64,000 bases of DNA from Acidisoma sp. (GCF_965199065.1 NZ_CBDAQN010000002.1:48213-112212), one strand, 5' to 3'; positions 38,309-61,084 are shown, counted from the first letter of the stretch. Notes: generated by a model not told the origin, from the letters alone. Numbers and translations are program-made.

Positions 38309-38356
38309 TCGTGAGACGCCGAAGATGGCCTACGGGACGATGTTTAGGACACCAAG

Positions 38357-40117: not shown

Positions 40118-40121
40118 CCTC

Positions 40122-42798: not shown

Positions 42799-42922
42799 CG
42801 GCATCCGGCCGCCTTTGCATCTGTCGGGGCAGCCAAGCCGTAGTCAGCTAAACTCCTTGCCAGCATTGGCCAGAGAAGAGAGATACACGTTCAGGGATTA
42901 AGAAGGTTCACAGCGGACGCTG

Positions 42923-43975: not shown

Positions 43976-43993
43976 GCTGCTAATCCGTCGGCC

Positions 43994-44569: not shown

Positions 44570-45246
44570 CCAGGCTGGCCATTCTGATGCTCGCCTGTCT
44601 GGCGGTCGTGCTGGGCGGAGTCATTGCAATCGAAGCGAAGCCTCAGAACGTGAGGCGATCCGTTCCGCCGGCAGAGGATCTGGTGCGGGCCGGCCCGGTC
44701 GTTCCCCATGGCGGCGACGCGCGGCAGGTTCAGTCCTGGGTCGAGGCAATCCTCGCCCGGCCGCTCTTCGTGCCCTCGCGTCGGCCACCCGCGGCTGCTG
44801 CCGGCCCGGGCGACAGCGGCCCGGGCTTCCCGCGGCTCACCGGCATCATCATCATGCCGCAGCAGCGCGAGGCCATTTTTGCGGCGCCCGGGAAGTCGCA
44901 GCCGATCGTGGTGAGCGCGGGCAGCCGCCTCAACGGCGTGCTGATCAAGTCGATCGATGCCGGCGCGATCGTCGTCGTCGATGCCGCGGGGGCTCGCATT
45001 ATCCGCCCGTCCTTCGCCGCCGGAACAGCCTCGGGCTCACTTGTCCCTACCGCTCCGCGCCCACTTTCCGTCACGGTCGACCAGCCGCCCGTGCCAACGC
45101 CGCACGGCACCTCGCCTTTTGCCTCCATCCCAGGACTTAGCGGCCGTCCGTTGGGTCTGGCGGCCCAGCCCGATGCCTCGCCGCCTCCGGGTGGGGGCGC
45201 GACCAACACTTTGCCATCTATTGCTTCTCCCGGAGTTTCGCCATGA
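44566..45246 (+). CDS. GspC/GspN-like (TM plus HR/PilP-like domain, Pro-rich tail)
   Basis: In-frame TTG 44566 overlaps the gspM stop and gives MTRLAILMLACLAVVLGGV. The segment LTGIIIMPQQREAIFAAPGKSQPIVVSAGSRLNGVLIKSIDAGAIVVVD resembles the secretin-binding HR domain. Confidence 0.5.
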   Translation: MTRLAILMLACLAVVLGGVIAIEAKPQNVRRSVPPAEDLVRAGPVVPHGGDARQVQSWVEAILARPLFVPSRRPPAAAAGPGDSGPGFPRLTGIIIMPQQREAIFAAPGKSQPIVVSAGSRLNGVLIKSIDAGAIVVVDAAGARIIRPSFAAGTASGSLVPTAPRPLSVTVDQPPVPTPHGTSPFASIPGLSGRPLGLAAQPDASPPPGGGATNTLPSIASPGVSP

Positions 45247-47585
45247 AGCGTCTGTTTCCCTTGGCCCTCGCACTGGCCGTAGCGGGAACGGGTGCGGGTT
45301 GCGCGCCGACCGAAGGTCCGCCGCGGGCGCTCGCGCCGCAACTTGTGCCCGATACCAATCATCCGGATTATCGCGTCAGCGGGCCGATCGGCAGTCCGAA
45401 AGCGCTGCAGCAGCCGTTGTTATCGTACGGTTCCTCGGGCACGGTCTCGCTTCCCGCACAGCAAGGCGCGGGCGCCGGGGATGTCTCGCTCGATTTCGCG
45501 GACACCGACATCCGCGAGGTCGTCGCGCAGATCCTCGGCTCGATCCTGAAGGTCAACTACACCATCGACCCGGCCGTCCACGGCACGGCGACGCTGCATA
45601 CGGTGACGCCGCTGGCGCGCTCGCAGCTGCTGCCGACCCTGGAGGCCCTGCTGTCCGAAACCGGCGCTACCCTCGTCGATACCGACGGTCTCTACCGGGT
45701 GCTTCCCGCCGCGGCCCCGGGAAGCGGGAGCGCGAGCAGTGCCGGCCTTGCGAGCGGAGGCGGAACGTCAGGCGCCCAGCTTGTGCCTCTCCGCTACGTC
45801 TCGGCGACCGACCTCGCCAAGGTGTTGCAGCCTTTCGCAGGACAGTCGGCACGGATCGCCGTCGACCCCGGTAGCAACAGTCTCGTCATCGCCGGCGATC
45901 CGGATGCGCGGGACGCGCTCGTGGCCCTCGCGCAGGCCTTCGACACGAACCTCCTGGCCGGACAATCCTACGCGCTGCTCCCATCGCCACAGGGCGGCGC
46001 GGCCGACTTCGCGACCGAGTTGCAGACGGCTTTCCGTGCTCAGGGTGGGGGGCTGACGAACCTGGTGCGCGTGGTGCCGATGGAACGTGCCGGGGCGGTG
46101 CTCGTCATCGCCTCCCAGCCTGAATACATCGACGCGGCCCGGCGCGTGTACGATCTGCTCGAGCGGAAGCAACGCGCGACCGTGCGTAGCTGGAACGTGT
46201 ACTACCTCAAGGATGCGAAGGCGGAGGATGCGGCCTACCTGCTCCAGGAGGCCTTCACCCCGGACAACGTGACCGCGACCCCGAGCAGCACCACGACGAG
46301 CCAGCAGAGCGGCACGTCCGCCACCGGGGGCGCCGGCACCCCCGGCATCGGCACCGGAACGAGTGCCGGCGCGGGCGCAGGGGGCAGCAGCCAGACCGCC
46401 GTCGGTGGGGGCATCGGCACCGGCACCGCCATCAACGGCACGTCCGGCGGCATATTGGGCGGCGGCAACTCGGAGCCGGCGGCAACCGGCGGTTCGTCCT
46501 CGGGGCAGAGCGCCGCGCCGAGCCAGACCGCGGCCAATCCTCTTCTGGGCGGTCTAAGCGCCAGCGGCGGCGGCGCGGGTGGCGCCAGCGACGCCGACGC
46601 CCTCCGCATCATCCCGGACGACCACAACAACTCGGTGATGATCTACGCGACGCAGGACGAGGAAGAGCGCATCGACGCCATGCTGCGCAAGATCGATATC
46701 CTGCCGCTGCAGGTGCGTATCGACGCGACCATCGCCGAGGTCACGCTCAACAGTGCGCTGCAATACGGCACGCAATTCTTCTTCAGGTCCGGGGGCATTA
46801 ACGGCATTCTGAACAACACGGCCGCCGCGACCCCCTTGGGCACGCCAAGCTCCACTGTCTTGTCAACGGCTTTCCCCGGGTTCGTCCTCAGCGGCAACGG
46901 GGCCGGCGGCGCGCCGATCGCGCTGCAGGCATTGCAGGCGGTGACGACGGTGAAGGTGCTGTCCTCACCGGAGCTGATGGTGCTGGACGGAGAGACTGCC
47001 CGGCTGCAGGTGGGCCAGCTGGTGCCATACCTCGCGTCGAGTTCGCAAAGCACCGTGGCCAACTCGGCGGTCATCAACAACATCAACTATCAGCCGACGG
47101 GCGTCATCATGAGCGTGACGCCCCGGATCAGCGAGGGCGGCCGTGTCACGCTCGACATCTCACAGCAGGTGAGCGCAGTCGACACCTCGGTCAGCACGTC
47201 GACCACCGGCATCTCGTCGCCAACCTTCTCGGAGCAGGACGTCTCCTCGCGCGTGACGGTGCAGGATGGGCAGACGGTCGGCTTGGCGGGGCTGATTACC
47301 GATAATCTCACCAAGACGAACTCCGGCATTCCGTTTCTGAAGGACATCCCGCTGATCGGCCTGCTCGCAGGCACGCAGAACAACACTCGCACGCGGGACG
47401 AGCTGCTCATCCTCATCACGCCGCACGTGCAGTACGATGAGAACGACGCGCGCGCGCTGACGGCGGATCTGCAGTCGCAGCTGCAGGACGCGGCCACTGT
47501 TCCGGGTGAACTGAACAGCCTGCAATCACCCGGGTCGGATGATCCGAATTCGGTCGTGCGCCGGCAACTCCGGCTGGATCAGTAA
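45243..47585 (+). CDS. gspD: type II secretion secretin, with lipobox-like signal and a long G/S/T/A-rich insert
   Basis: N0-like VSLDFADTDIREVVAQILGSILKVNYTIDP. Secretin core ..VLSSPELMVLDGETARLQVGQLVPY..GIPFLKDIPLIGLL..ELLILITPHV. Signal MKRLFPLALALAVAGTGAGC. Confidence 0.95.
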   Translation: MKRLFPLALALAVAGTGAGCAPTEGPPRALAPQLVPDTNHPDYRVSGPIGSPKALQQPLLSYGSSGTVSLPAQQGAGAGDVSLDFADTDIREVVAQILGSILKVNYTIDPAVHGTATLHTVTPLARSQLLPTLEALLSETGATLVDTDGLYRVLPAAAPGSGSASSAGLASGGGTSGAQLVPLRYVSATDLAKVLQPFAGQSARIAVDPGSNSLVIAGDPDARDALVALAQAFDTNLLAGQSYALLPSPQGGAADFATELQTAFRAQGGGLTNLVRVVPMERAGAVLVIASQPEYIDAARRVYDLLERKQRATVRSWNVYYLKDAKAEDAAYLLQEAFTPDNVTATPSSTTTSQQSGTSATGGAGTPGIGTGTSAGAGAGGSSQTAVGGGIGTGTAINGTSGGILGGGNSEPAATGGSSSGQSAAPSQTAANPLLGGLSASGGGAGGASDADALRIIPDDHNNSVMIYATQDEEERIDAMLRKIDILPLQVRIDATIAEVTLNSALQYGTQFFFRSGGINGILNNTAAATPLGTPSSTVLSTAFPGFVLSGNGAGGAPIALQALQAVTTVKVLSSPELMVLDGETARLQVGQLVPYLASSSQSTVANSAVINNINYQPTGVIMSVTPRISEGGRVTLDISQQVSAVDTSVSTSTTGISSPTFSEQDVSSRVTVQDGQTVGLAGLITDNLTKTNSGIPFLKDIPLIGLLAGTQNNTRTRDELLILITPHVQYDENDARALTADLQSQLQDAATVPGELNSLQSPGSDDPNSVVRRQLRLDQ

Positions 47586-47590
47586 TACTG

Positions 47591-48394
47591 ATGCGGCTGC
47601 CTCGCCGCCTGGAGCATCCGCGCGGTTTTGCGCTCCTGATCGTCTTGTGGTCGATGGTGCTGCTGTCGCTGTTGTTCGCGCGGCTCGTCTCCGCCGGACG
47701 AAGCGAAGCGGAGATCGCGTTCAACCTGCGCGCGGCGGCGCAAAGGCAAGCTCAGGCCGACGGGCTTCTCTATAGTGTCATCTTCAGCCTGCTCGGCCCC
47801 GGCCGACATTGGCCGGCGGATGGAGCCGCACATCGCATTCGGCTTCCCGCGGCGGTCGCAAGCGTCTCCATCGAGAACCTGGACGGCCTCATCAATCCGA
47901 ACACCGCGTCGCCGGCCCTGCTTTATGCGCTGCTCTCGCGAGTGGGGGCTGACGCGACAACGGCTCGCAGCGTGTCGCAGGCGATGGCGGACTGGCGGTC
48001 GCCGGATGCGCAGGGTGTCTTTGAAGCGCCACAGTATCTGAGCGCGGGCCTGTCCTACACGCCTGCGGGATCGCCGTTCCAGAGCATCGGCGAACTCGGG
48101 CTCGTTCTTGGGATGACGCCGGAACTTCTCGCCAAGCTGGCGCCGCATCTATCGCTGTATAATGGTGACAACCCAAACCCGGATGATGCGGATCCGGTCG
48201 TCCGCCACGCACTGCGTGACACTGGGACGGTCGGAACATCCGGAGCCTCGCACCCACTACGGGTCGTCGCTGTCGACATCGTCATTTCCGGGGCGGGCGG
48301 CACCGAGGCGTCGCGACAAGCCGACGTGCAACTGCAAAGCTCCTCATCACCCACAGGTTTTCAAATTTTAACCTGGGAGAGCGGAGGGGCCTAG
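47591..48394 (+). CDS. gspK: minor pseudopilin GspK-like (short)
   Basis: RGFALLIVLWSMVLLSLLF (GspK-type, no Phe+1 methylation motif) and ..LINPNTASPALLYALL.. (helix-hairpin-helix-like). Confidence 0.7.
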   Translation: MRLPRRLEHPRGFALLIVLWSMVLLSLLFARLVSAGRSEAEIAFNLRAAAQRQAQADGLLYSVIFSLLGPGRHWPADGAAHRIRLPAAVASVSIENLDGLINPNTASPALLYALLSRVGADATTARSVSQAMADWRSPDAQGVFEAPQYLSAGLSYTPAGSPFQSIGELGLVLGMTPELLAKLAPHLSLYNGDNPNPDDADPVVRHALRDTGTVGTSGASHPLRVVAVDIVISGAGGTEASRQADVQLQSSSSPTGFQILTWESGGA

Positions 48395-48573
48395 GCCGCG
48401 ACACTTGGCCGATGATGCTGCATTGCACAATCAAGCAGGCCCGCAGCCGCTGCTGTCTCATGGAAGTTTCCGGAACTTTTCGAAAAAAGTACTGCATCCA
48501 ACAGAGAGTTAATGCGGTAGTGAGATCGTGGCCGCTCAAAGCAGGTCACGGCAGCTTTTAGGGGGTCTTCCTA

Positions 48574-49464
48574 ATGTCCGAGTTAATTTCCGGGGTCGAT
48601 GACGCGCTTCGATCCAACCGGCGTAACCTGTTGAAGACCGTAGGTCTAGGTGTCGCGGGAACTGCTGCTCTTGCCGCGACCGGCGTCGCGAGCTTGGGTT
48701 TCGGATCGACGCCGGCCATGGCACAAACCGATACTGATATCGAAGTGTTTAACTTCGCTCTCAATCTCGAATATCTCGAAGCCGAATTCTATCTTCGCGC
48801 CGTCACGGGAACAGGCCTGCCCGCAAGCCTGACCGGAGGCGCCGCAACGGTCACGGGTGGCTCTCTTGTTCCGTTTCAGAACACCGCCATCGCTTATCTC
48901 GCGCAGAAGATTGCGGTCGATGAACTGGCCCACGTTACCTTCATCCGCACCGTCCTCGGCGCGATGGCGGTTCCTGAGCCAAACCTCGACCTGTCGACCA
49001 GCTTCACGACGTTGGCCATCGCGGCAGGTCTCATTGCACCTGGCCAGACCTTCAACCCGTTTGCAAGCGAGACGAACTTCCTTCTTGGCGCATACATCTT
49101 CGAGGATGTGGGCGTGACGGCGTATGGTGGCGCTGCCGCATCCCTGTCGGCGGCGGTGCTTCCCTACGCCGCCAGCATTTTGGCCGTCGAAGGCTATCAT
49201 GCTGGTGGTATCCGGACACGTCTGTCGGAGATCGGTGGTTCGGCGGCGACAGATTTGATTTCTGCGCTGCGCCAGAAGCTATCGGGCGTGGGTGACAACG
49301 GCTGCAACTACGAAAGCAACCCGGCGAACTTCACGAACGTCGACAGCAATGGGCAAAGCTATCGCCGCACGCCGGCTCAGGTTCTGAGCATCGTTTACGG
49401 TGGCGGCACATCGAGTGGCCTGTTCTTTCCGAATGGCATGAACGGCGCCATCACGGTCGCCTGA
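48574..49464 (+). CDS. Tat-signal ferritin-like (Ferritin_2 / desiccation-related PCC13-62-like) protein, paralogue 1
   Basis: NRRNLLKTVGLGVAGTAALAA...AMAQ (twin-arginine signal). Di-iron-type motifs NLEYLEAEFY, VDELAHV, FEDVGV, VEGYHAG. Confidence 0.8.
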   Translation: MSELISGVDDALRSNRRNLLKTVGLGVAGTAALAATGVASLGFGSTPAMAQTDTDIEVFNFALNLEYLEAEFYLRAVTGTGLPASLTGGAATVTGGSLVPFQNTAIAYLAQKIAVDELAHVTFIRTVLGAMAVPEPNLDLSTSFTTLAIAAGLIAPGQTFNPFASETNFLLGAYIFEDVGVTAYGGAAASLSAAVLPYAASILAVEGYHAGGIRTRLSEIGGSAATDLISALRQKLSGVGDNGCNYESNPANFTNVDSNGQSYRRTPAQVLSIVYGGGTSSGLFFPNGMNGAITVA

Positions 49465-49477
49465 CATCTATGGGAAT

Positions 49478-49507
49478 GCGAGTGGCGCCAGGCTGGGCGC
49501 CGCTCGC
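49478..49507. terminator. bidirectional stem-loop between convergent ferritin-like gene and gspG
   Basis: GCGAGTGGCGCC-aggctg-GGCGCCGCTCGC, a 12-bp stem with one G-U pair. Confidence 0.55.
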
Positions 49508-49516
49508 AACCATCGT

Positions 49517-49942
49517 TCAGTTGCAGATCATGTTGTCGCCGGTTGCGGTGCCATTGGGTCCGGTCGAGCAGAGGTCGTAGTCGTGTCCGGCGCGGTCTGA
49601 CGGATCACGATAGACATATGGATGGTTCCAGGGATCGACGGGCACCTGACCCGATTGAACGTAGGGACCGTTCCAGTTGCTGACGCCGGCGGGGGTCTGA
49701 ACCAGGGCTTCCAGCCCCTGATCCGTGGACGGATAGCTCCCGACATCCAGCTTGTACATGTCGAGAACCGAACCCAATCGTGCGATCGACTGATGCGCGA
49801 TCGAGACGCGTGCGCCTCCCAGTTGACGCAGCACGGCAGGTGCCACCAAGCCGATCAGCAGGCCCAGGATCACGATGACGACCAGAATTTCGAGAAGCGT
49901 GAAACCGGCCTGAGTGTCTTCGCCGGCGACACTAACCCTCAT
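49517..49942 (-). CDS. gspG: major pseudopilin
   Basis: G|FTLLEILVVIVILGLLIGLVAPAV..., then ..LDMYKLDVGSYPSTDQGLEALV..GPY...VPVDPWNHPYVY (classic GspG). Start is ambiguous: ATG 49942 or 49960, with the ORF open to 50074. Confidence 0.9.
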   Translation of the reverse strand: MRVSVAGEDTQAGFTLLEILVVIVILGLLIGLVAPAVLRQLGGARVSIAHQSIARLGSVLDMYKLDVGSYPSTDQGLEALVQTPAGVSNWNGPYVQSGQVPVDPWNHPYVYRDPSDRAGHDYDLCSTGPNGTATGDNMICN

Positions 49943-50075
49943 AATTGCAGCTTGCCTCATTCGCAGGGAGGCGCGAAGAGTTTTCGGTCGCGTCATCCAA
50001 GGTGCTGGCATCGTGACTTCGTTCCTTAACTGAGGCGCATTTCTGTACGGGACCATCGTCACGGGCGACGCCAAG

Positions 50076-51083
50076 TTAGCGAGGTTGCGCCGCGATATCG
50101 ATATGGTCGCTCATCCGCGATCGGTAGATGCGCATGACGGCGTCAATATCCGTGCCGGTTTCGCTCAGGCTCCCGTCGGGCTCCACCACGCCCAAAACAT
50201 AGCCGAGCGAGATGAGCCAGCTCAGATAGTCTTCGCCGGAAATATGCGAGATGCCCGGGATCATGCCTGGGCTGAACTCGCTGATGATGAAGGGCCGGCA
50301 TCGCCGTATCGTCGCCTCCGCGCCAAGCAGCGCGTTGTACTCAGCACCTTCGACGTCGACCTTGATGAGGTCCACTGTCGTCCAGGCATCAAGAAGCGAG
50401 TCGAGCCTGAGGCAGGACACCGATTCCGCTGCCAGCAACTGGCCAAGCTCGTCGGGCGGCGCCGACGTCGTCCCGTTTGAAAAGGAGGTGTTCAGGATCA
50501 GAATCCCGGTCTCACGCCCGGCCGCGCTCTGCGCGACTGTTACGTTGTCAAAGCCGTTGGCTCTGCGACTTGCTTCGAGTAGCCGCACGTTGCGCGGATT
50601 GGGTTCGACCGCGAGAACATGCCCCTGCGCCCCGACAAGGGTGGCGGCAAGCATGGTGAAATAGCCTATGTTCGCACCGATATCGACGACGCTCATGCCG
50701 GGTTGCAGTCTCGACCGGAACAAGCGCGTCACGTCGGGTTCATAATTGTCGTCGCGAACAGGCTTGCCGACGGCGGCGTCATTCTGGTTGGAGTAGATGC
50801 GGAAACCTTGAACCTCGGTTGAGACGATGTCCTCGCCCGGATCGCGGTTCAGAAATCCGCGGCGTTGGAATTCGAGGCTGGTGACATAGCTCGAGACAAC
50901 CTGACCAAGGGGCTCCCCCACGCGCGAGCTGTGGCCGCGCCACTCCTCCGGATTAGGCATCCGTCCCAGGATCAACCGGAAGCAGCCCAGGATGTCAGCC
51001 TCGCTTGCCGTATCCTCGAATGTTGTGGTCCAAGGCTCGCGTATCTCAGGAATAGGGCGCGTCCTGGCCCATGGCAGTCGCAT
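50076..51083 (-). CDS. FkbM-family methyltransferase with DUF4214-like N-terminal domain
   Basis: VVDIGANIGYFTMLAA..VLAVEPNP..LIKVDVEGAEYNAL (FkbM/Methyltransf_21 pattern). N-terminus ILGCFRLILGRMPNPEEW...SLEF. Confidence 0.8.
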   Translation of the reverse strand: MRLPWARTRPIPEIREPWTTTFEDTASEADILGCFRLILGRMPNPEEWRGHSSRVGEPLGQVVSSYVTSLEFQRRGFLNRDPGEDIVSTEVQGFRIYSNQNDAAVGKPVRDDNYEPDVTRLFRSRLQPGMSVVDIGANIGYFTMLAATLVGAQGHVLAVEPNPRNVRLLEASRRANGFDNVTVAQSAAGRETGILILNTSFSNGTTSAPPDELGQLLAAESVSCLRLDSLLDAWTTVDLIKVDVEGAEYNALLGAEATIRRCRPFIISEFSPGMIPGISHISGEDYLSWLISLGYVLGVVEPDGSLSETGTDIDAVMRIYRSRMSDHIDIAAQPR

Positions 51084-51272
51084 CGGTCACCACCGCTAAA
51101 AGGGCTCGCTACCCGTCTTTGGGGCGGAGTGGTAATGCGGGCGCTGCACGATGTCCAGCCTGCTGGGCGCGCAAACAACCAGCACTATCCGCCCGTGAGG
51201 CCAAATAGTCTGCCAATCATGGCAGTGCTGCCGGGGCTTGCTCCAGGATCTTGAAGGAGGCAAACTTACACT

Positions 51273-54200
51273 TTGGGTTCGCTCGACTGCGATGCCCGCG
51301 GGAGCCCGACTGTGACGTTCGTGTCTTACGCCCAGAATTTCGAAGATGTGCTGCTGTGGCGCGCGCTCCGGGGGGTCGAGAACGGCTTCTACATCGATGT
51401 GGGCGCCGGGCATCCAGATATCGATTCGGTTTCTCGCGCCTTCTACGACCGCGGCTGGCACGGGATCAATATCGAGCCGACCGTTGAATTCAGCCGACGT
51501 CTCGCGGCCGCCCGTCCACGCGACATCAATCTGCAGCTGGTTCTGGGGGAGCATCCCGGCCGGGCCACGTTGTTCGTTGTTGATGGCACGGGCCTTTCGA
51601 CGATGGTGCCCGCAGGGGTCGATGCAATCCGAGAGGCCGGCAAGGAAAGCCACCGGGTCGAAGTCGCCATGGATACGTTGGCGAATCTGTGCCGCGAGCA
51701 CGCTCCTGAGTCGATCCATTTTCTCAAGGTGGATGTGGAAGGCGCCGAACGCGCTGTGCTGGCCGGCGCCGACTTCATGTCATTCCGGCCATGGATCGTC
51801 GTGGTTGAGGCGACAGCGCCGATGTCCAGCGTGATGACGCATGATACGTGGGAGTTCATGCTGCTCGAGGCAGGGTATCGCTTTGTCTGGTTCGATGGTC
51901 TCAACCGGTTCTACCTCTCTTCGGAGAGGCATGACGCGCTCGCTCACGCGTTCCAGGCGCCGGTGAATGTCTTCGACGACTTTATTCGTGCAAGCGACAC
52001 CGAGTGGGCGCGGCGCATTCAGGCGGCCGAAAACCACGCCTCGGACCGGGTCGTGAAACTGCTTGAGCGTGCGATCACGGCCGAGGTGCGGGCGGATCAT
52101 GAGTCGCTGTCGGCCGCGCATGCCCGGGTTCGGATCGACGAGACGTGGCGCGAAGCCCAGCAGCTACGCGCCGCTTTGCAGGATGAAAGGGCGCAGCGGC
52201 TGGCCGCCGAGGCGGAGGCAGAGGCCCTCACACGGCGCGCCGAGGCAGCCGAAAGCAATGCCGTTGGGCAGGCAACGCACGCAAAAGCCGAAACCATGCG
52301 CGCCCGTTACGAGCAGCAACGTTCCGCGATCAACGAGCAGCTTCGACGGGAGGCGATGGCCGCCTTCGAAGCCATCCATCGCAGCACCTCCTGGCGCATA
52401 ACGGCGCCGCTCCGTCGCCTGCGGTCGCGGCGAAACGCGGCGGGACCGGTGATCACACAACCGCCGCTGCCGGAGCCTCCGGCTGAGCTGGCCATTGCGC
52501 GTGAAGAACGCTCGATCTTTGCGAGTTCGGGTTTGATGGCTTCCGGGCGCGAGCGCCGGCCGGCGCCGCCGCGGACCAAGGTCCATCAGTATCATTCGGG
52601 TGCCGCTACCGGCGATGCGATCACCAACAGCATGCTGCTGACCCGCCAGCGGCTACGTGATCTTGGATACGAGAGCGAGATCTTCGTGAGCTTCCGCGAT
52701 CCGTCCCTCGCGCATGAGCTTCGTCTGGCGGACGATCTGCCGCGTCATGATCGTTATGTATTGATTGTCCGGCACTCGATGGGCTTCGATGCATTCGACG
52801 CGGTGGCGTCGGTTCCGGCGCCCAAGATTCTGCTGTATCACAATATCACGCCGCCTGATCTGCTGCAGGGCGACGCCTTCATGCAGCGATACGCAATCCT
52901 GGGCCGGGAGCAGCTCAAGAAATGGCGCTCCGTGGTCGGCGGGTCCCTTGCCGATAGCGAATACAACGCCATCGAGCTTCGTGCTCACGGGTTTTACCCG
53001 GTGCAGGTCTGCAATACGTTGTTCGATGCCGATGCGCTTCTCGCCCGCGCCGCCTCCACCCTAAAGGTGAAAGAGGCCGACTGTTTCACCATCCTTTTCG
53101 TCGGCCGCGTCGTGCGCTCAAAAGGGCAGGCGGAACTGGTGGACGTGTTCGCCGCATTCCGCAATCGGTATCGGAAGCCATGCCGACTAGTGCTCGTCGG
53201 CCGCCACGGCGATGCCAAGGACGACTACCTCATTTCGATCAAATCGCGCCTGAAAGAGTACGGGATAGCCAGCGACGTTGTGCTAACCGGGCCGGTGTCG
53301 GATGATGATCTGCATGCCTGGTACGCAAGTGCGGATGTCTACTTGTCGTTGAGCCGTCATGAAGGTTTTGGTGTGCCTCTGATCGAGGCCATGGCGCATG
53401 ATCTGCCGGTCCTCGCGCTTCCGGTCGCCGCTGTTCCCTACACCCTCGGCGGCACCGGCGGTCTGCTGGAGGACGATTCGATCAGTGGCGTTGTCGGCAG
53501 GCTTCTTGATCTTGCGGAGGGAGAGGAGCGCCAAGCGGGTTTGATCGCGCGGCAGCGTGCGGCGCTGGAGCGTGTACGTTGGGAGCGTCACAAAGACGCG
53601 TTCATGCAGACCTTGACGGCTGCCGGTGCGGCGCCATCGGTTCCCCGCGAGACGGAAGCCCTGTTGTTGTCGTCGATAACATTCACGGTGACCGGGCATG
53701 TCAGCGGCAGTTACAGCCTGGCGACGATCAACCGCACGCTGGCGCTCGCGCTGGACATCGCCCGGCCGGGCGATGTCCGCCTCGCACCGGTCGAGGGCAC
53801 GCCGACGACGACGATCAGCGGTTTACCCGGCCAGGACTTGACCAAGATCGAGGCGCTGGTTGCGCGGCCAAGGCCCATGACTGCCCCGCACGTCGTGATC
53901 AGCCAGCATTATCCGGTGTATGTTCCGTCTGATCCCGGGGACCTCTCGCTCGCCTACTTCTTCTGGGAAGAGTCGCTTATCCCTCTCAAGACGATTGAAG
54001 GTCTGAACAAGAATTTCCGGGCAATACTTGCGCCGACGGTTTTTGTGGCGAAGACGCTGATCGATTCCGGACTCTCGCTTCCGGTTCGCGTTGTCGGCTA
54101 TGCGCCTCGGCTGGAGGGGTTCGAGGCCCTGGCGGCTACGCGCAAGGCAGCGGCCGGCCACCCTTTTACCTTTCTGCATGTCTCATCCGGCTTCCCCCGC

Positions 54201-55979
54201 AAAGGCATCGATGTCCTTCTCGAGGCCTACGCAAAGGCTTTTCGCAGCTCGGACGACGTTCGCCTCGTCATCAAGGTGTTCCCCAATCCGCATAACACGG
54301 TGGCGCAGCAGCTGGCCGGCTTGCAGACGGCGGACAGTAATGCGCCTGCAATCACCCTGATCGATGACGACATCTCCGAAACGGAATTGGTGGACCTCTA
54401 CCGAAACGCCGACGCAGTTGTGCTTCCAACCCGCGGCGAAGGGTTCAATATCCCGGCGGCCGAGGCGATGGCGGCCGGAATCCCTCTCATCGTCACCGGG
54501 CACGGCGGACACATGGACTTCTGCGACCGATCCGTCCGGTTGGTAGATTACAGCTTCGCGCCTTCCGGGAGCCACCTCGCGGCGAGTGGCTCGCTCTGGG
54601 CAGACCCGGATGCGGACGACCTGACGAACGCCTTGCGCGAGGCTGTTTTGGACCGGTTGCCGAGGCCGAGTCCGGCCCAACTACCAGATGCGAGAACCTT
54701 CGCGGAAAGCATCATCGCGACCTCGGCAGAGCTCCTGTTGCTTCCGCCACCGCCGCCGCTGCGTATCGGCTGGGTGTCGAGCTGGGGCGTGCGCTGCGGG
54801 ATCGCGGAATACTCCCGTCATCTGCTGGATGCGATGCTCGCCTCGGACGAACCGGGCGCGGAGGGCGGCTCACCTCCAGAGGTCACGGTTCTTTGCGACA
54901 CGCGGACGTCCACCGAGGCACCCGAGGCGCTGGATGCCACCATCCGGCCCTCCTGGGACCTTTTTCTTCTCGACGGGGCCAAGCCACTCATTCGCGCGGT
55001 AGCCGAGACCGATCCTGATGTGCTGGTGATCCAGCATCAACCTGGACTGATCGTCTGGAACTCGCTGGCGGAATTACTCGCCTCGGAAACCGTCCGGCAG
55101 CGGCCGGTCGTACTGGTTCTCCACACCACGCAACGCATCCTCGACATCACCGAGGAAGATCGCACGGCGATCATAGCCGCGCTGAGGGGTGTTGCCCGCG
55201 TCGTCGTTCACACGGTCAATGACGTGAACCGGCTGAGGAAGCTCGGACTGGTCGCGAACGTGGTGATGATACCGCAAGGGGCCGTGCCTCTGGGCGAACC
55301 GGTGGTGCTTTCCATCGCGCCAGCCGAAGAGCGTCGTTTCATCATCGGATGCTACGGCTTCTTCTTCAGCGAGAAGGGGATTTTGCAACTTATCGAGGCG
55401 TTCGGGCAACTGCGCGCGCGTGATGGTCGCCTCCGGCTACGCCTCGTCAATGCCCAGTACGGCACGGTGGAGTCCGCAGCGGAGATTGCCCGTTGCCGCG
55501 CCGCGGCCGAGGCTGCCGGTCTTGCCGACGCGGTAGAATGGCACACGAATTTTCTGCCCGATCAGGAGTCGCGCCGGCTTCTCGGCGAGTGCGATCTCAT
55601 CGCACTTCCCTATCAGACGTCGAAAGAGGGATCGAGCGCGGCGTTGCGGATGGCGATGTCCGCCGGTGTGCCTGTGGCGGTCACGCCGTTGCCGCTGTTC
55701 GATGAGGCTGAAGCCGCTGTGTTTCGCTTCAGCGGCACTGGGAGCGCCGATATAGCAGATGGGATTGCCCACCTCCTCAATCGGCCTGAGGAGCGGCAGG
55801 CAATCCGGGCGGAGATGAAATCCTGGATGACGAGCCGCGAATGGCCCCGCGTCGCCACGCGCTTTGGAGGCATGCTCCAGGGGCTGCGTTCCAATTGGAA
55901 AAGCGGCAATGTCATTCAGCCGTGCGCCAGTGATAACTCCACAGTGCCTGGGCCCGCGGCTGCCGCGACGGTAGACTGA
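51273..55979 (+). CDS. 1568-aa fusion protein: FkbM methyltransferase, coiled coil, three GT4 glycosyltransferase domains
   Basis: aa 15-215 SYAQNFEDVLLWRAL..YIDVGAG..LKVDVEGAE. aa 245-375 Ala/Glu/Arg heptad-rich. SWRITAPLRRL. GT4 motifs SRHEGFGVPLIEAMAHDLPVL, PTRGEGFNIPAAEAMAAGIPLI, and a weaker third (PYQTSKEGSSAALRMAMSAGVPV). Confidence 0.8.
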   Translation: MGSLDCDARGSPTVTFVSYAQNFEDVLLWRALRGVENGFYIDVGAGHPDIDSVSRAFYDRGWHGINIEPTVEFSRRLAAARPRDINLQLVLGEHPGRATLFVVDGTGLSTMVPAGVDAIREAGKESHRVEVAMDTLANLCREHAPESIHFLKVDVEGAERAVLAGADFMSFRPWIVVVEATAPMSSVMTHDTWEFMLLEAGYRFVWFDGLNRFYLSSERHDALAHAFQAPVNVFDDFIRASDTEWARRIQAAENHASDRVVKLLERAITAEVRADHESLSAAHARVRIDETWREAQQLRAALQDERAQRLAAEAEAEALTRRAEAAESNAVGQATHAKAETMRARYEQQRSAINEQLRREAMAAFEAIHRSTSWRITAPLRRLRSRRNAAGPVITQPPLPEPPAELAIAREERSIFASSGLMASGRERRPAPPRTKVHQYHSGAATGDAITNSMLLTRQRLRDLGYESEIFVSFRDPSLAHELRLADDLPRHDRYVLIVRHSMGFDAFDAVASVPAPKILLYHNITPPDLLQGDAFMQRYAILGREQLKKWRSVVGGSLADSEYNAIELRAHGFYPVQVCNTLFDADALLARAASTLKVKEADCFTILFVGRVVRSKGQAELVDVFAAFRNRYRKPCRLVLVGRHGDAKDDYLISIKSRLKEYGIASDVVLTGPVSDDDLHAWYASADVYLSLSRHEGFGVPLIEAMAHDLPVLALPVAAVPYTLGGTGGLLEDDSISGVVGRLLDLAEGEERQAGLIARQRAALERVRWERHKDAFMQTLTAAGAAPSVPRETEALLLSSITFTVTGHVSGSYSLATINRTLALALDIARPGDVRLAPVEGTPTTTISGLPGQDLTKIEALVARPRPMTAPHVVISQHYPVYVPSDPGDLSLAYFFWEESLIPLKTIEGLNKNFRAILAPTVFVAKTLIDSGLSLPVRVVGYAPRLEGFEALAATRKAAAGHPFTFLHVSSGFPRKGIDVLLEAYAKAFRSSDDVRLVIKVFPNPHNTVAQQLAGLQTADSNAPAITLIDDDISETELVDLYRNADAVVLPTRGEGFNIPAAEAMAAGIPLIVTGHGGHMDFCDRSVRLVDYSFAPSGSHLAASGSLWADPDADDLTNALREAVLDRLPRPSPAQLPDARTFAESIIATSAELLLLPPPPPLRIGWVSSWGVRCGIAEYSRHLLDAMLASDEPGAEGGSPPEVTVLCDTRTSTEAPEALDATIRPSWDLFLLDGAKPLIRAVAETDPDVLVIQHQPGLIVWNSLAELLASETVRQRPVVLVLHTTQRILDITEEDRTAIIAALRGVARVVVHTVNDVNRLRKLGLVANVVMIPQGAVPLGEPVVLSIAPAEERRFIIGCYGFFFSEKGILQLIEAFGQLRARDGRLRLRLVNAQYGTVESAAEIARCRAAAEAAGLADAVEWHTNFLPDQESRRLLGECDLIALPYQTSKEGSSAALRMAMSAGVPVAVTPLPLFDEAEAAVFRFSGTGSADIADGIAHLLNRPEERQAIRAEMKSWMTSREWPRVATRFGGMLQGLRSNWKSGNVIQPCASDNSTVPGPAAAATVD

Positions 55980-56201
55980 TCGCTTCTGCACCGCTGATCG
56001 GCCAGCATTCCCCAGACGAGCTGCCTCCAAGAGTTACATTATCAAGACAACTCGGTCGCCTGCGGCCCCCTGTAACTTTGCCGCGATGGCGGTGCCAGCA
56101 CATCAACGTGATGCTGAAGATGAAATCTGGTCAACTAATTTGTAATTGTCGCTGCGTTCAGAAAGTTCGGTAGACGCTGCGAAAACCAAGAGCGTGTCCA
56201 G

Positions 56202-57107
56202 ATGAGTCAACTTTTTGGAAACAGCCACATGAACAATATCGCTAGTAGCGAAACCGCAAGCCGAAGGTTTATTGGAAAGATTGGCGCAGGTGCCGTCGCT
56301 CTCTGCGCGTTGGCTGGTCTTGCGAGCAAGCCGGCAAAAGCTCAGGCAGACGCTGACGTAAATGTTCTCAACTTTGCTCTCAACCTCGAATACCTCGAAG
56401 CCGAGTACTATTTGCGCGCCGTGACTGGAGCGGGCCTTTCTGCGGCTTACGGAGGAGCAGGCACAGCGGTCGTTCCGACTTCGACCCTGGTCCCCTTCAA
56501 GACGTCAGCAGTAGCTTATTGGGCGCAGCGGATTGCCAATGACGAACTCGCCCATGTGAACTTTCTCCGGATCGCGCTTGGTGCCGCGGCCATTCCCGAG
56601 CCAGTGATCGATCTTGAGACGAGCTTCACCACGCTTGCCGTAGCCGCGGGCCTCATCACGGCGGGCCAAACCTTCAACCCGTTCGCGAGCGAACTCGACT
56701 TCCTCATTGGAGCCTACATCTTCGAAGATGTCGGCGTCACGGCCTATGCCGGAGCCGCCGCCCTTCTGACCGAGCCCAACAATATTGCATACAGCGCCAG
56801 CATCCTCGCGATCGAAGCCGAACATGCCGGCTGCATCCGGGGCTACCTTGCCTCGATTGGCGGCGGAGCGGCTACAGACGCTATTTCCGCGCTGCGTCAG
56901 AAGCTTTCCGGCGTGCAGGACAACGGGACCGATCTCAGCGGGAGCGGTGGCAACCCGTTTTCGTTCGCAAACGACGACTACAACGGCCAGGTGTTCCGCA
57001 GAACGCCGCAGCAGGTGCTTAACATCGTCTACGGTGCACCTGGAACGGGCGTCACGTCCGGTCTGTTCTTCCCCAATGGCGTCAACGGTGCCGTTGCCTC
57101 GACTTAA
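56202..57107 (+). CDS. Tat-signal ferritin-like protein, paralogue 2
   Basis: SRRFIGKIGAGAVALCALAGL..AKAQ signal. NLEYLEAEYY, NDELAHV, FEDVGV, IEAEHAG. Confidence 0.8.
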   Translation: MSQLFGNSHMNNIASSETASRRFIGKIGAGAVALCALAGLASKPAKAQADADVNVLNFALNLEYLEAEYYLRAVTGAGLSAAYGGAGTAVVPTSTLVPFKTSAVAYWAQRIANDELAHVNFLRIALGAAAIPEPVIDLETSFTTLAVAAGLITAGQTFNPFASELDFLIGAYIFEDVGVTAYAGAAALLTEPNNIAYSASILAIEAEHAGCIRGYLASIGGGAATDAISALRQKLSGVQDNGTDLSGSGGNPFSFANDDYNGQVFRRTPQQVLNIVYGAPGTGVTSGLFFPNGVNGAVAST

Positions 57108-57151
57108 GCAAGCCGCCAGCCGATAGCACTAACATCATCGAGGACGCTTCA

Positions 57152-58075
57152 ATGCCTGACAACACAATCAAGACCGTACTCCAGAAGAGTATTGACCGCC
57201 GCCGCTTCATGAGGCGCTCCGGGCTTGGCCTGACCGGATTGGCAACTGCAGTCTCAGGTGCGTTTCTATCCGCCAAGCCCGCGCGCGCTCAGGCCCTGAC
57301 CGACGCGGACATCTTCAACTTTGCTTTGAATTTCGAGTATCTCGGGTCGCAGTATTATCTTGCGGCGCTTGGCACTTCCTTGCCTGCGAGCCTGACAGGT
57401 ACCGGCGCAGGTGCGGTGATCCTGCCGACCCCGACTGCCGTTCCGTTCCAGAACAAGGCCGTTGCTTACTTCGCTCAGCAGCTCGCTGTTGACGAACTCG
57501 CGCACGTCACCGTTATCCGGGAGGCTCTGGCGGCTGAGGGCGCCACTCCGATCCCGCAACCGGTTATCAACCTCAACACGAGCTGGACTTCGCTCGCGGC
57601 GGCGGCAGGATTGATCACTCCGGGCCAGACCTTCAATCCCTTCGCTAGCGAAACCGACTTCCTGCTGGGTGCCTACGTTCTGGAGGATGTTTGCGTCACC
57701 GCACTTTGTGGCGCGGCGCCGCTAATCTCAAGCAAGGTGAACTTGGCCTATGCCGCGTCCATTCTCGGCGTGGAGGGCTACCAGGTCGGCCTCATCAGAT
57801 CGCGTCTATCGGCGATCGGCGCGGATGTCGCTACGGATGCCATCTCCGCTCTTCGGTCGAGCCTCTCGAACACGGTCGTCAACATGGGCGTCAATGATGT
57901 AGGCACAAATGCCTATGGCAACCCCTTCAACTTCACCAATGCTGACAGCAACGCCCAGGCGTTTCGTCGCACCCCCCAGGAAGTTCTGGCGATTGCATAC
58001 GGTGGGGCACCGGCGGGTGGCGGATTCTTTCCGAATGGCGTAAACGGCGCCATCACAACCACGGCTTCCGCCTGA
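57152..58075 (+). CDS. Tat-signal ferritin-like protein, paralogue 3 (altered metal-site motifs)
   Basis: DRRRFMRRSGLGLTGLAT..ARAQ signal. NFEYLGSQYY, VDELAHV, LEDVCV, VEGYQVG (Q where paralogues 1 and 2 have H). Confidence 0.8.
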   Translation: MPDNTIKTVLQKSIDRRRFMRRSGLGLTGLATAVSGAFLSAKPARAQALTDADIFNFALNFEYLGSQYYLAALGTSLPASLTGTGAGAVILPTPTAVPFQNKAVAYFAQQLAVDELAHVTVIREALAAEGATPIPQPVINLNTSWTSLAAAAGLITPGQTFNPFASETDFLLGAYVLEDVCVTALCGAAPLISSKVNLAYAASILGVEGYQVGLIRSRLSAIGADVATDAISALRSSLSNTVVNMGVNDVGTNAYGNPFNFTNADSNAQAFRRTPQEVLAIAYGGAPAGGGFFPNGVNGAITTTASA

Positions 58076-58170: not shown

Positions 58171-58584
58171 TCAATCGTGATGATGGACCCGTACGAACAG
58201 CGCCTCGGCCGCCTGGATGACCTGCGACTGGTAGGAGAGGTTGAGCTGGCGGGTGTGAGAGTGGTAGTCGCCGATTGCCCGCATGAGATCGCCTCGATCC
58301 TCGGCGAGGTAGGTTTTGAGGATCGCCCCGGCTGCGGCGATATTATAGCAGGGCGCGTTGATGAGACGGGCCCGGACCTGACTGGCCGGTTCTCGCGTGT
58401 ATGCCACGAGCGGCCCAATCCAACGCGTGTTGATCTGCATAACCCCTAGGTCCTGCGATCCGTCGGCGTCGTTGCTAATGGTCCCTGGCCGGCCGCCTTC
58501 TATCGCCTGGATAGACGGCAGCACCCGAGGCGGGAGGTGGTAGATCGACGCGACGAGCGCCATGCAAGCGAGGAACGGTATCAC
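58171..58584 (-). CDS. small lytic transglycosylase (SLT domain) protein
   Basis: 137 aa; LPSIQAIEGG (catalytic Glu region) and DLGVMQINTRWI, as in VirB1/IagB-type specialised transglycosylases. Confidence 0.7.
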   Translation of the reverse strand: MIPFLACMALVASIYHLPPRVLPSIQAIEGGRPGTISNDADGSQDLGVMQINTRWIGPLVAYTREPASQVRARLINAPCYNIAAAGAILKTYLAEDRGDLMRAIGDYHSHTRQLNLSYQSQVIQAAEALFVRVHHHD

Positions 58585-59026: not shown

Positions 59027-61084
59027 ATGAAAACACCTCCAACCCTGGCCGTGCTCGAAAGGTCGAGATGGCTCTGGCAACAATTGTATTTGTGGAGGGT
59101 TCCTCTCTTGCAGAAATCAACGTGGGCGCGAACGCGCCTGCAATTCCGGTCGGCGATGCTCGCCGCGACCGCCGCTAGCCTGATCGCAGGCCCGGTGGTT
59201 CCGGCCTTCGCCCAATCCGCCGCCGCGACCGGTGGCGTCGACAATATGGTTGGATCGCCGCCTGCGAGCACTCCGATCCAGCACATCGTCGTCATCATCG
59301 GCGAGAACCGCACGTTCGACCATGTGTTCGCAACGTATCAGCCGCCGCACGGGGAAAAGGTGTTCAACCTCCTCTCCGAGGGCATTATCAACGCGAACGG
59401 CACGCCCGGACCGAACTACCGCAACGCCGGACAGTTCTCGGCCCAGCAGCCGGCCAATTACAGCACGCACCCCGGCGGCAAGGTTCTCTACACGAACCTT
59501 CCGGCGCCCGGCACGGACGGCGCGCCGACCGCGTCGTCAGACAGCAACCCGCCTCCCTTCGCGAGCGTTGCGGCGGTCGCGGCTGTTGAGTCACAGATCA
59601 ACGACGGCCTGCCCAGCGCCGATTACAATCTGCTGACGACGGGCGCGACCGGCCTCGCCTCGGATGTCGCGGACACGCGCATCACGAACGCGAACTCGCT
59701 CCCGGATGGCCCTTATCAGATCACCGGCCCGACCCTGCCGTACGACTCCTATACAGCGAGCCCGGTTCATCGCTTCTACGAGATGTGGCAACAAACTGAT
59801 TGCGCCAAAGGCCATATCACAGCCGCCAATCCTTCCGGCTGCTTGAACGACCTCTTTCCCTGGACCGAAGTCACCGAGGGCGCCGGCACCAACGGCAAGC
59901 CGCAACCCGCCGGGTTCAATAATCTGACAACGGGCGAAGGCTCGGCGTCGATGGGCTTCTTCAACATGGCGCAGGGGGACGCGGCAACGTTCAAGTCGCT
60001 CGCCGACCAGTACACGATCAGCGACAACTACCATCAGGCCATCATGGGCGGCACCGGCGCCAACCACATCGCGCTCGGGACCGGCCTCGCCATCTATTAC
60101 ACCGATGGTCAGGGCAACGTCGCGACGCCGCCCGCGGATGAAATCGAGAACCCCAACAGCCAATCCGGCACCAACAACTGGTGGGTGCAGGACGGCTACT
60201 CGGGCGGTTCATATAGCAATTGCTCGGACGACACGCAGCCGGGCGTGACGGCAGTCCGCACCTACCTCAAGTCTCTGCCGTCGAAGCCCGCCCTGAAGTG
60301 CAAGAAGGACGCCTACTACCTTCTCAACAACTACAACCCGGGCTACTTCGGGGACGGCACCGTCAACACCTCGACCTTCACCGTGCCGCCTTCGCCGGTG
60401 CACACGATCGCGGATGTCCTGAACGCGCACAACATCTCCTGGAAATACTACGGCGCCGGATGGGACAACTACGTGGCCAACCCGTCGAGCGACCTCGGCG
60501 GCCTCTATTGCAACATCTGCAATCCCTTCCTGTATGAAACCAACATCATGACGAGCGCGACGCAGCGCTCGACGCATCTGAAGGACGTGCCGGATCTGGT
60601 CTCCGACATCAGCACCGGCAATCTGCCGGCGGTCTCGATCATCAAGCCCGATGGCCTGCTCGACGGACATCCGGCTTCGTCTAAGCTCGATCTCTTCGAA
60701 GCCTTCGCCAGCAACATCGTCTCCGAGATCCAGGCCAACCCCAAGCTGTGGGCGCATACCGCGATCCTCATCACCTTCGACGAGGGCGGTGGATACTGGG
60801 ACTCGGGCTACATCCAGCCGCTCGACTTCTTCGGCGACGGCACGCGTATCCCGGCGATTATGGTCTCGCCCTACTCCACCGGCGGCCATGTCACCCACGT
60901 CTACGCAGATCATGTCTCGTTCCTGAAGTTCATCGAGCGGAACTGGGGTCTCGAGGCGGTCTCCAAGAGCGGCCGTGACAACCTGCCTGACCCGATCGCC
61001 TACGCCAACAACCCGTATGCTCCGGTCAACAGCCCGGCCATCGGCGACCTGATGGATATGTTCAACTTTTACCAGAAGAACTGA
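59027..61084 (+). CDS. phosphoesterase-family protein (phospholipase C / AcpA acid phosphatase family), secreted
   Basis: IQHIVVIIGENRTFDHVFATY is the phosphoesterase-family N-terminal motif. Signal-like MLAATAASLIAGPVVPAFAQS; the true start is probably downstream of 59027 (e.g. ATG 59156). Confidence 0.75.
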   Translation: MKTPPTLAVLERSRWLWQQLYLWRVPLLQKSTWARTRLQFRSAMLAATAASLIAGPVVPAFAQSAAATGGVDNMVGSPPASTPIQHIVVIIGENRTFDHVFATYQPPHGEKVFNLLSEGIINANGTPGPNYRNAGQFSAQQPANYSTHPGGKVLYTNLPAPGTDGAPTASSDSNPPPFASVAAVAAVESQINDGLPSADYNLLTTGATGLASDVADTRITNANSLPDGPYQITGPTLPYDSYTASPVHRFYEMWQQTDCAKGHITAANPSGCLNDLFPWTEVTEGAGTNGKPQPAGFNNLTTGEGSASMGFFNMAQGDAATFKSLADQYTISDNYHQAIMGGTGANHIALGTGLAIYYTDGQGNVATPPADEIENPNSQSGTNNWWVQDGYSGGSYSNCSDDTQPGVTAVRTYLKSLPSKPALKCKKDAYYLLNNYNPGYFGDGTVNTSTFTVPPSPVHTIADVLNAHNISWKYYGAGWDNYVANPSSDLGGLYCNICNPFLYETNIMTSATQRSTHLKDVPDLVSDISTGNLPAVSIIKPDGLLDGHPASSKLDLFEAFASNIVSEIQANPKLWAHTAILITFDEGGGYWDSGYIQPLDFFGDGTRIPAIMVSPYSTGGHVTHVYADHVSFLKFIERNWGLEAVSKSGRDNLPDPIAYANNPYAPVNSPAIGDLMDMFNFYQKN

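Follow-up and report, generated by a model that had tools for sequence, protein, structure and literature searches.

In a 64,000-nucleotide (nt) stretch of DNA from Acidisoma sp. (GCF_965199065.1 NZ_CBDAQN010000002.1:48213-112212; hereafter the window, with positions counted from its first letter), we analysed three genes for Ferritin_2 proteins, all on the + strand. Paralogue 1 (48574-49464, 296 amino acids (aa)) is embedded between the type II secretion genes gspK and gspG, and paralogues 2 (56202-57107, 301 aa) and 3 (57152-58075, 307 aa) are the upstream and downstream members of a tandem pair. Paralogues 1 and 2 are of the standard kind typified by Deinococcus DRB0118, referred to here as H-type, and paralogue 3 is of a kind that we call Cys/Gln-type, after two residues at the second of its two predicted metal positions. 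The family itself is already known; what is new is this Cys-containing second-site configuration, which is strictly conserved, usually has a gene for the standard form as its tandem neighbour and lies in a recurrent setting of secretion and glycosyltransferase genes. We found no description of the Cys/Gln variant, or of a Ferritin_2 protein as type II cargo, in the searchable literature, the coverage of which is incomplete, and this is absence of evidence only.

The second metal site of paralogue 3

The sole solved member of the family is RvFeMP-1 (RvY_06210) of the tardigrade Ramazzottius varieornatus (Protein Data Bank (PDB) entries 8KCE, 8WAI and 8W9K; Kato et al. 2024, PMC11616004). Proteins with the PF13668 domain carry a dinuclear metal site, and in RvFeMP-1 metal 1 is held by Glu51, Glu90, His93 and Asp162 and metal 2 by Glu90, Glu132, Asp135, Asp162 and water; the D135A and D135N mutants are inactive (PMC11616004). 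In the DRB0118/PCC13-62 clade, in which Asp135 is missing, a helix-1 Glu has been proposed to replace it as a metal-2 ligand, and the Gln that is normal at the helix-4 position of plant PCC13-62 and yeast Rds1 has been proposed still to reach metal 2 (PMC11616004).

We mapped the ligands with a MAFFT alignment that included bridging and reference sequences (supplement of PMC11616004; the numbering of the reference sequences has small offsets), together with the structural superposition in that paper. Alignment of the family profile with RvFeMP-1 by hhalign covered only helix 1, at low probability, and the mapping of the other ligands therefore rests on MAFFT and the published superposition. 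In paralogue 1 numbering, the standard site comprises E66; E69; E117xxH120; E177xxG180; Y184; and E206xxH209. Its first-site residues E66, E117, H120 and E206 correspond to RvFeMP-1 E51, E90, H93 and D162. Around the second site, E177 corresponds to E132 (E191 in DRB0118), G180 to D135 (G194 in DRB0118), E69 to A54 (E76 in DRB0118, E53 in PCC13-62 (Cp) and E92 in Rds1) and H209 to H165 (Q195 in PCC13-62 and Q200 in Rds1). Paralogues 1 and 2 are identical to DRB0118 at 15 of 15 diagnostic site positions and have its type of second site (a second Glu in helix 1, ExxG in helix 3 and ExxH in helix 4). Paralogue 3 does not, and is therefore filed within the family but outside that site type: Glu is replaced by Gly in helix 1 (G65, equivalent to position 69; GGG at 57344-57346), Gly by Cys and Tyr by Leu in helix 3 (C181, position 180, TGC at 57692-57694; L185, position 184, CTT at 57704-57706), and His by Gln in helix 4 (Q211, position 209; CAG at 57782-57784), all on the + strand.

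These replacements define a subfamily. Among 217 non-redundant relatives, 118 share the state of paralogue 3, 90 have the standard state and 9 are intermediates, and ten positions split the two types almost perfectly (L65F, E69G, I113L, F144W, F176L, G180C, Y184L, A204G, H209Q and V274A). With the two class-defining positions left out of the ten, 5 of the 8 that remain are at most 4 residues away from a ligand (1.3 expected, P = 0.004). Gly69, Cys180, Leu184 and Gln209 are 100% conserved in the 118 Cys/Gln-type sequences, the median pairwise identity of which is 63%. All three paralogues have the four first-site residues, which show 100% conservation in both the 118 Cys/Gln-type and the 90 H-type sequences, as does the helix-3 residue E177 in the Cys/Gln type. 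All 9 intermediates already carry Cys180 and 6 of them have the whole signature but keep His209, so that the change from His to Gln looks like a late step.

Genes with Gly69 and Cys180 but His209 retained were seen at three of the loci compared (L013, 9914-11940; L022, 10010-10852; L043, 9848-10795), the first of which has two intermediate genes in tandem, one with a near-complete signature and one mosaic. These loci may record the order of the substitutions. When 1.84 billion cluster representatives were searched exhaustively, the wider family comprised 1,522 of them at E ≤ 1e-3; the Cys is found in about 16 of the best 150 cluster representatives, reaching down to 38% identity with paralogue 3. 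A midpoint-rooted neighbour-joining tree does not recover the Cys/Gln type as strictly monophyletic: two distant members, L073 and L077, are placed elsewhere, and four G69/H209 intermediates branch within it. We do not claim a single origin. One distant Cys/Gln-type gene, at 38% identity to paralogue 3, comes from the same sample (L082, 6001-6924, on a 3.8-Mb contig), where it stands alone directly upstream of hopanoid biosynthesis genes (two SQS_PSY, an amine oxidase and a squalene-hopene cyclase).

Cys181 of paralogue 3 aligns exactly with the essential Asp135 of RvFeMP-1, and E69G together with G180C would resemble the swap of a side chain from one face of the second site to another. In standard bacterial proteins H209 may act as a ligand, and Cys181 and Gln211 may bind metal in paralogue 3. 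Because the replacement set is invariant, the first site is intact, the evolutionary rate is near that of the partner gene (see below) and all intermediates already have Cys180, the second site appears to be remodelled, with an altered preference for metal and/or substrate, rather than dead or decayed. An earlier reading of the window from its sequence alone (the sequence-only reading) had described paralogues 1 and 2 as keeping the metal motifs and paralogue 3 as having lost predicted ligands. The FEYLGSQ and VEGYQVG motifs and Q211 that it cited are as it gave them, and paralogue 3 does differ at metal-site positions; 'lost', however, does not describe a conserved signature that leaves the first site whole. 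Its list of changes was also incomplete, having missed the invariant Cys and Y184L, and the Gln at position 71 that it pointed to does not define the type, as most Cys/Gln-type proteins keep Glu71.

Family membership, fold and divergence

The Pfam family Ferritin_2 (PF13668) matches paralogues 1, 2 and 3 with E values of 8.9e-37, 9.6e-38 and 3.9e-33 (126.7, 129.9 and 114.9 bits, against a gathering threshold of 24.7 bits). It is the sole family reported at E ≤ 0.01, with no match to the classical ferritin, bacterioferritin, Dps or Mn-catalase families of Pfam, and a scan of all window open reading frames (ORFs) with the family hidden Markov model (HMM) gave no further copy. For paralogue 2 the gene caller picks another start (56229, 292 aa), which still includes the twin-arginine (RR) motif. 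All three paralogues share with Deinococcus and plant proteins a C-terminal domain that aligns as RTPxxVL...GGF[FY]PxGxxG, and they have the defining features of the 'DRP / pcC13-62-related' group: a signal peptide, a ferritin-like domain, the conserved C-terminal domain and no IgG-like domain. The three genes are thus members of the DRB0118/PCC13-62 'desiccation-related protein' (DRP; clade-2 Tar-fer-related) branch of Ferritin_2. Over the whole mature protein, identity to DRB0118-type proteins (DRB0118 and a D. phoenicis homologue) is 42-44% for paralogues 1 and 2 and 37-39% for paralogue 3; paralogue 1 matches DRB0118 at 42% identity (E 3e-48).

Full-length identity is 62% between paralogues 1 and 2 and 59% between 1 and 3; in the mature region the values are 66% (1-2), 63% (1-3) and 61% (2-3). 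In the tree, paralogues 1 and 2 fall among standard-type proteins, paralogue 2 grouping with the genes that occupy the upstream place in the pairs at L001-L012 and L041, and paralogue 3 falls in another lineage. The sequence-only reading had placed the three ORFs exactly where we find them and had named the family correctly. Its view that paralogues 1 and 2 are clearly more similar to each other than to paralogue 3 holds for the topology but is overstated for identity (66% versus 63% and 61%), and its judgement that the duplicates are old agrees with distances of 0.27-0.52 between the H-type and Cys/Gln-type members of pairs. Of the core motifs that it listed, DELAHV, TFNPFASE, EDVxVTA and FFPNGxNGA are invariant in all three proteins, but paralogue 1 reads YRRTPAQVL where FRRTPQ.VL had been given. 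The G+C content of the Ferritin_2 stretches (48001-50000 and 56001-58000) is 0.59-0.60, compared with 0.67-0.71 in the flanking secretion genes, which could reflect either protein composition or a separate origin.

Single-chain models made with AlphaFold2 (AF2) predict a ferritin-like four-helix bundle with a crossover linker, followed by the family-specific C-terminal domain. The mean predicted local distance difference test (pLDDT) score is 81.5 for paralogue 3, with values >90 across most of residues 50-250, and 74.6 for paralogue 2; the helices predicted for paralogue 3 (51-72, 102-128, 167-191 and 195-221) have equivalents in paralogue 2. The best PDB fold matches of paralogue 3 are RvFeMP-1 entries (8wai, 8w9k and 8kce) and the top six of paralogue 2 are all RvFeMP-1 chains; for both models ferritins are among the lower-ranked matches. 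The scores are modest (E 1e-3 to 2e-2, template modelling (TM) score 0.37-0.42), as expected because the C-terminal domains of RvFeMP-1 and the paralogues differ. PDB sequence searches with paralogue 1 and then with a 38-sequence profile gave nothing relevant, and the link to RvFeMP-1 comes from the fold search and the literature.

Tandem pairing, leaders and gene neighbourhood

To place the pair in context we compared 80 related genome loci, mostly from metagenome-assembled genomes of Acetobacteraceae, with some from Acidobacteria, Janthinobacterium and Methylobacterium. A standard gene lies directly upstream of a Cys/Gln gene on the same strand (H>Q order) in 30 of the 80 loci, and the reverse order (Q>H, same strand), with a distinct 'EEN' standard subtype, is found in 9. 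About three quarters of the Cys/Gln-type genes adjoin a standard-type gene, and among distant members P0140 is in tandem. Beside lone Cys/Gln genes we found no diverged second Ferritin_2 gene, except a truncated one in L023; the surroundings of another lone gene (L034; an M29 peptidase and a sigma-54 activator) were uninformative. In L036, L045, L046, L048, L049, L051, L055 and L061, the Cys/Gln gene comes first and is followed by the standard subtype with Asn71 ('EEN...'); the Q>H arrangement adjoins glycosyltransferase (GT) and FkbM methyltransferase genes, with no secretion genes within 10 kb.

The spacer between paralogues 2 and 3 (57108-57151, + strand) is 44 bp long, contains a GAGGA ribosome-binding site and lacks a terminator, and the two genes likely form a bicistronic unit. 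At related loci the H-to-Q spacers mostly measure 9-116 bp, and for paired genes overall most are shorter than 120 bp. The trees of the partners mirror each other, and the inter-genome distances of partners correlate (r = 0.90, 41 pairs, comprising adjacent pairs, mixed-arrangement loci and the window). In paired loci the Cys/Gln partner evolves 1.08-1.10 times faster than the H partner, and at within-pair distances of 0.27-0.52 there is no recent pair among the 41. RvFeMP-1 and DRB0118 form dimers through helix 4 (PMC11616004). The data favour paralogues 2 and 3 as a functional pair, plausibly a heterodimer given this family dimer.

All three proteins begin with leaders of the twin-arginine translocation (Tat) type, as the sequence-only reading had noted from their RR motifs and AxA-Q ends. 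The predicted leaders span aa 1-50 of paralogue 1 (nt 48574-48723; NRRNLLK, ending AMA-Q), aa 1-47 of paralogue 2 (nt 56202-56342; SRRFIGK, AKA-Q) and aa 1-46 of paralogue 3 (nt 57152-57289; RRRFMRR, ARA-Q), each on the + strand. The assignment was made with rule-based scripts of the TATFIND kind (an RR motif plus an uncharged stretch) rather than a trained predictor. The rule is satisfied by the three paralogues, by 107 of 114 full-length homologues and by 111 of 120 cluster representatives, and the leader of DRB0118 likewise contains RR. Homologue leaders run for a median of 51 residues up to a nearly invariant A-x-A, have a weakly hydrophobic h-region (hydropathy about 1.0) and, in 69% of cases, a basic c-region (K/R before A-x-A). 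Tat-type leaders are the rule in the bacterial branch of the family.

Paralogue 1 sits inside a type II secretion system (T2SS) cluster with genes on both strands (37493-50074) and a complete set by Pfam matches: GspO (37493-38308, - strand), GspE (38357-40117), GspF (40122-41339), GspH (41329-41787), a GspJ-like protein (42199-42798), a GspL-like protein (42923-43975), GspM (43994-44569), GspD (45243-47585), GspK (47591-48394) and, beyond paralogue 1, GspG (49517-50074, - strand). The order gspK, Ferritin_2 gene, gspG recurs in the paralogue 1 orthologues L029 and L059, and GspG is a neighbour of Ferritin_2 genes in 20 of the 80 loci. Between GspG and paralogue 2 lie an FkbM-family methyltransferase (50076-51083, - strand; adjoining Ferritin_2 in 26 of 80 loci) and a 1568-aa protein that combines an FkbM methyltransferase domain with three glycosyltransferase domains of the GT4 family (51273-55979, + strand; 38 of 80), both identified with Pfam. 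The two may take part in making a methylated polysaccharide or act on the exported proteins. At L020, a locus of the culturable relative Lichenicoccus roseus, an H>Q pair adjoins the giant glycosyltransferase. T2SS genes occur within 10 kb of Ferritin_2 in 11 of 30 H>Q loci and 10 of 16 lone-H loci, and GT/FkbM genes are near 21 of 30 H>Q and 8 of 9 Q>H loci. When both kinds of neighbour are counted, 23 of 30 H>Q, 13 of 16 lone standard, 8 of 9 Q>H and 1 of 13 lone Cys/Gln loci have T2SS and/or GT/FkbM genes no more than 10 kb away.

Downstream of the pair is an SLT-domain lytic transglycosylase (58171-58584, - strand; Pfam SLT), present in 19 of 80 loci, usually beside gspG, which may ease the passage of the secretion system across the cell wall. 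It is followed by a PF04185 phosphoesterase of the acid phosphatase/phospholipase C family (59027-61084, + strand; gene-caller start 59108), which is plausible as a further secretion substrate, and by a 650-aa multi-pass membrane SPFH/Band 7 protein (61166-63118, + strand). We rejected the phosphoesterase as part of the conserved module, as weak matches (24%) were found in only 4 of 80 loci. On the other side of the secretion genes, all on the - strand, are genes for a RepA_C plasmid replication protein (33327-34613), a ParA-type partition ATPase (32113-33330) and a SopB-HTH ParB-like partition protein (30950-32029). These genes, and the name of the source contig, which ends in '_c' (128,863 bp, ENA ERZ25067493), suggest that the whole cluster is on a large plasmid.

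Explanations weighed and known systems compared

Our preferred explanation, which as a whole we consider rather probable, is that these are Tat-exported proteins of the DRB0118/PCC13-62 branch, of which paralogue 3 is remodelled, that paralogues 2 and 3 are a conserved unit, and that the proteins are released by type II secretion. Paralogue 3 would represent an old sister lineage in which the first metal site was left untouched and second-site residues were exchanged as a set. Paralogues 2 and 3 would assemble into a hetero-oligomer in which a standard subunit is joined to a Cys/Gln one, the most likely arrangement because the family dimerises through helix 4. The proteins would fold and be loaded with metal in the cytoplasm, pass to the periplasm by Tat and finally reach the cell surface or matrix through the T2SS that is encoded next to them and co-conserved. 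Their chemistry could be phosphate-ester hydrolysis, with precedents in DRB0118 and RvFeMP-1, or peroxide removal, with a precedent in NmNec2, and their role the protection of the envelope or matrix under desiccation or oxidative stress. RvFeMP-1, RvFeMP-2 and DRB0118 are weak, promiscuous metal-dependent phosphatases in vitro (PMC11616004), inactivation of DRB0118 sensitises Deinococcus to desiccation, the plant member NmNec2, secreted into nectar, is a reported multimeric catalase (PMC8812537), and other plant DRPs have been reported as inhibitors of enzyme reactions. Far more doubtful is a fuller version, in which a heterodimeric secreted metalloenzyme with an undescribed Cys-containing second site is the dedicated cargo of a plasmid T2SS and acts with the giant GT/methyltransferase on a matrix that protects Acetobacteraceae from drying.

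Several observations weigh against this explanation. Family members have been reported with quite different activities (phosphatase, catalase and enzyme inhibition), so that the family is known but its chemistry unsettled; the phosphatase activities lie 1-2 orders below those of known metabolite phosphatases, with no physiological substrate established (PMC11616004). His165, the counterpart of H209, is absent from the RvFeMP-1 ligand lists (PMC11616004). The sequence-only reading had staked its case on the H-to-Q position being a ligand; with this His unlisted, yet a Gln there proposed to reach metal 2, the alignment decides the matter in neither direction. Of about 55 Cys/Gln genes, 13 are in unrelated surroundings that contain no Ferritin_2 partner within 4-10 kb, and the distant members P0230 and P0178 stand alone; not every member of the type can therefore depend on a heterodimer. 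Paralogues 2 and 3 each have their own Tat leader, and co-export therefore needs no complex. No curated Tat-signal HMM from Pfam or NCBIfam scored above threshold (such short models are often filtered out), and the matches to TIGR02811 (E 4e-4) and NF038009 were sub-threshold. For type II secretion of these proteins the one argument is synteny; the interpretation given by the sequence-only reading is partly supported overall, and its suggested role for type II secretion likewise has conserved gene linkage as its only support.

A catalytically dead paralogue 3, serving paralogue 2 as a structural, chaperoning or regulatory partner in the way that Rnr4, which lacks ligands, assists Rnr2 of yeast ribonucleotide reductase, seems unlikely to us. 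It would account for the two changed second-site residues E69G and H209Q, the first of which removes the helix-1 Glu proposed to stand in for Asp135, and for the frequent tight tandem with a standard-type gene. It is at odds with four replacement residues that are invariant across 118 sequences at a median identity of 63%, with the complete conservation of the remaining ligand residues, with a rate almost equal to that of the partner, with a Cys placed exactly at the essential Asp position, and with the 13 Cys/Gln members that have no partner nearby. The Gln, too, is normal at this position in plant DRPs, one of which is a reported active catalase (the sequence of NmNec2 itself was not compared). 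The sequence-only reading had left the choice between a non-catalytic partner and a specificity variant, and the latter fits better. A possibility with a better, if still minor, chance is that paralogues 2 and 3 work as separate enzymes that differ in substrate or metal, adjacent through tandem duplication and shared regulation, without a complex. Their separate leaders agree with this, as do the many lone genes of both types, including paralogue 1, which is the single H-type gene among the secretion genes and functions without a partner; against it, adjacency has been kept through deep divergence (0.27-0.52), in two gene orders and with mirrored trees, in a dimeric family, although none of these points rules out mere co-regulation.

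We give about the same limited credence to the proposal that the proteins, after export by Sec or Tat, stay in the periplasm and are not T2SS cargo, their linkage to secretion genes reflecting a shared plasmid or island. Type II cargo has no defining sequence signal, the curated Tat HMMs stayed below threshold, the cluster adjoins plasmid replication and partition genes, and lone Cys/Gln-type genes occur without a T2SS nearby. Against the proposal are the placement of paralogue 1, shared by its orthologues, between gspK and gspG, the linkage to T2SS and/or GT/FkbM genes in 23 of 30 H>Q and 13 of 16 lone-H loci of diverged genomes, and the full Tat feature set in >90% of homologue leaders. That the proteins store iron or act as ferroxidases in the sense of classical ferritin, bacterioferritin or Dps is highly improbable and already disfavoured: the four-helix bundle and the lower-ranked ferritin fold matches are compatible with it, but the only family matched is PF13668, without any classical ferritin or Mn-catalase family, the closest structure is the dimeric phosphatase RvFeMP-1, and the proteins have an extra C-terminal domain and are predicted to be exported.

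The Ferritin_2/DRP family spans bacteria, plants, fungi and tardigrades and has repeatedly been tied to the survival of drying. A strictly conserved second version of the active site, usually encoded beside the standard one, offers a built-in comparison for the role of the second metal site, and bacterial members may work as mixed pairs. Until now these members have been treated as proteins that clean up metabolites inside the cell; the linkage to a T2SS and a large glycosyltransferase points to extracellular action and could redirect work on them.

Compared with known systems, DRB0118 is closest to paralogues 1 and 2. It shares with the paralogues the RR leader, the Ferritin_2 domain and the C-terminal domain, and with paralogues 1 and 2 all 15 site positions; as its DR_B locus prefix shows, it is encoded on a megaplasmid, and the cluster in the window likewise appears to be plasmid-borne. 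Paralogue 3 departs from it at the 10 type-specific positions around the second site, and neither a Cys/Gln partner nor linkage to type II secretion has been described for DRB0118. RvFeMP-1 is the best fold match and its first-site residues (E51, E90xxH93 and D162) align with E66, E117xxH120 and E206, but identity is about 15-19%, an IgG-like C-terminal domain takes the place of the DRP one, and the helix-3 Asp135 corresponds to Gly in the H-type and Cys in paralogue 3, with Ala where the H-type has Glu69. The plant DRPs (Craterostigma PCC13-62 and NmNec2, PMC8812537) and yeast Rds1 resemble paralogue 3 in their helix-4 ExxQ and in being secreted or extracellular, and the plant proteins likewise combine a signal peptide, Ferritin_2 and the conserved C-terminal domain. 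The plant DRPs differ in keeping the helix-1 ExxE and the helix-3 Gly and Tyr, in having lost the helix-3 Glu (to Pro), in a core that reads EEEHPGYEQ rather than the EGEHECLEQ of paralogue 3, without Cys, and in their eukaryotic Sec signals.

Phospholipases of Pseudomonas aeruginosa are examples of substrates that use Tat and then type II secretion. Ball et al. 2016 (PMC4899797) provides a precedent for this route, export of the folded protein by Tat followed by secretion across the outer membrane. These substrates are unrelated to the paralogues, for which leaders and gene linkage suggest such a route. Yeast Rnr2-Rnr4, which forms the small subunit of ribonucleotide reductase, is a ferritin-like heterodimer with a standard dimetal site in one subunit and substituted ligands in the other, Rnr4, which lost ligands and binds no iron. 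By analogy, paralogues 2 and 3 would likewise be paralogous ferritin-like subunits with one standard and one substituted site; paralogue 3 differs from Rnr4 in that it keeps one full site and a conserved replacement set that includes a new Cys.

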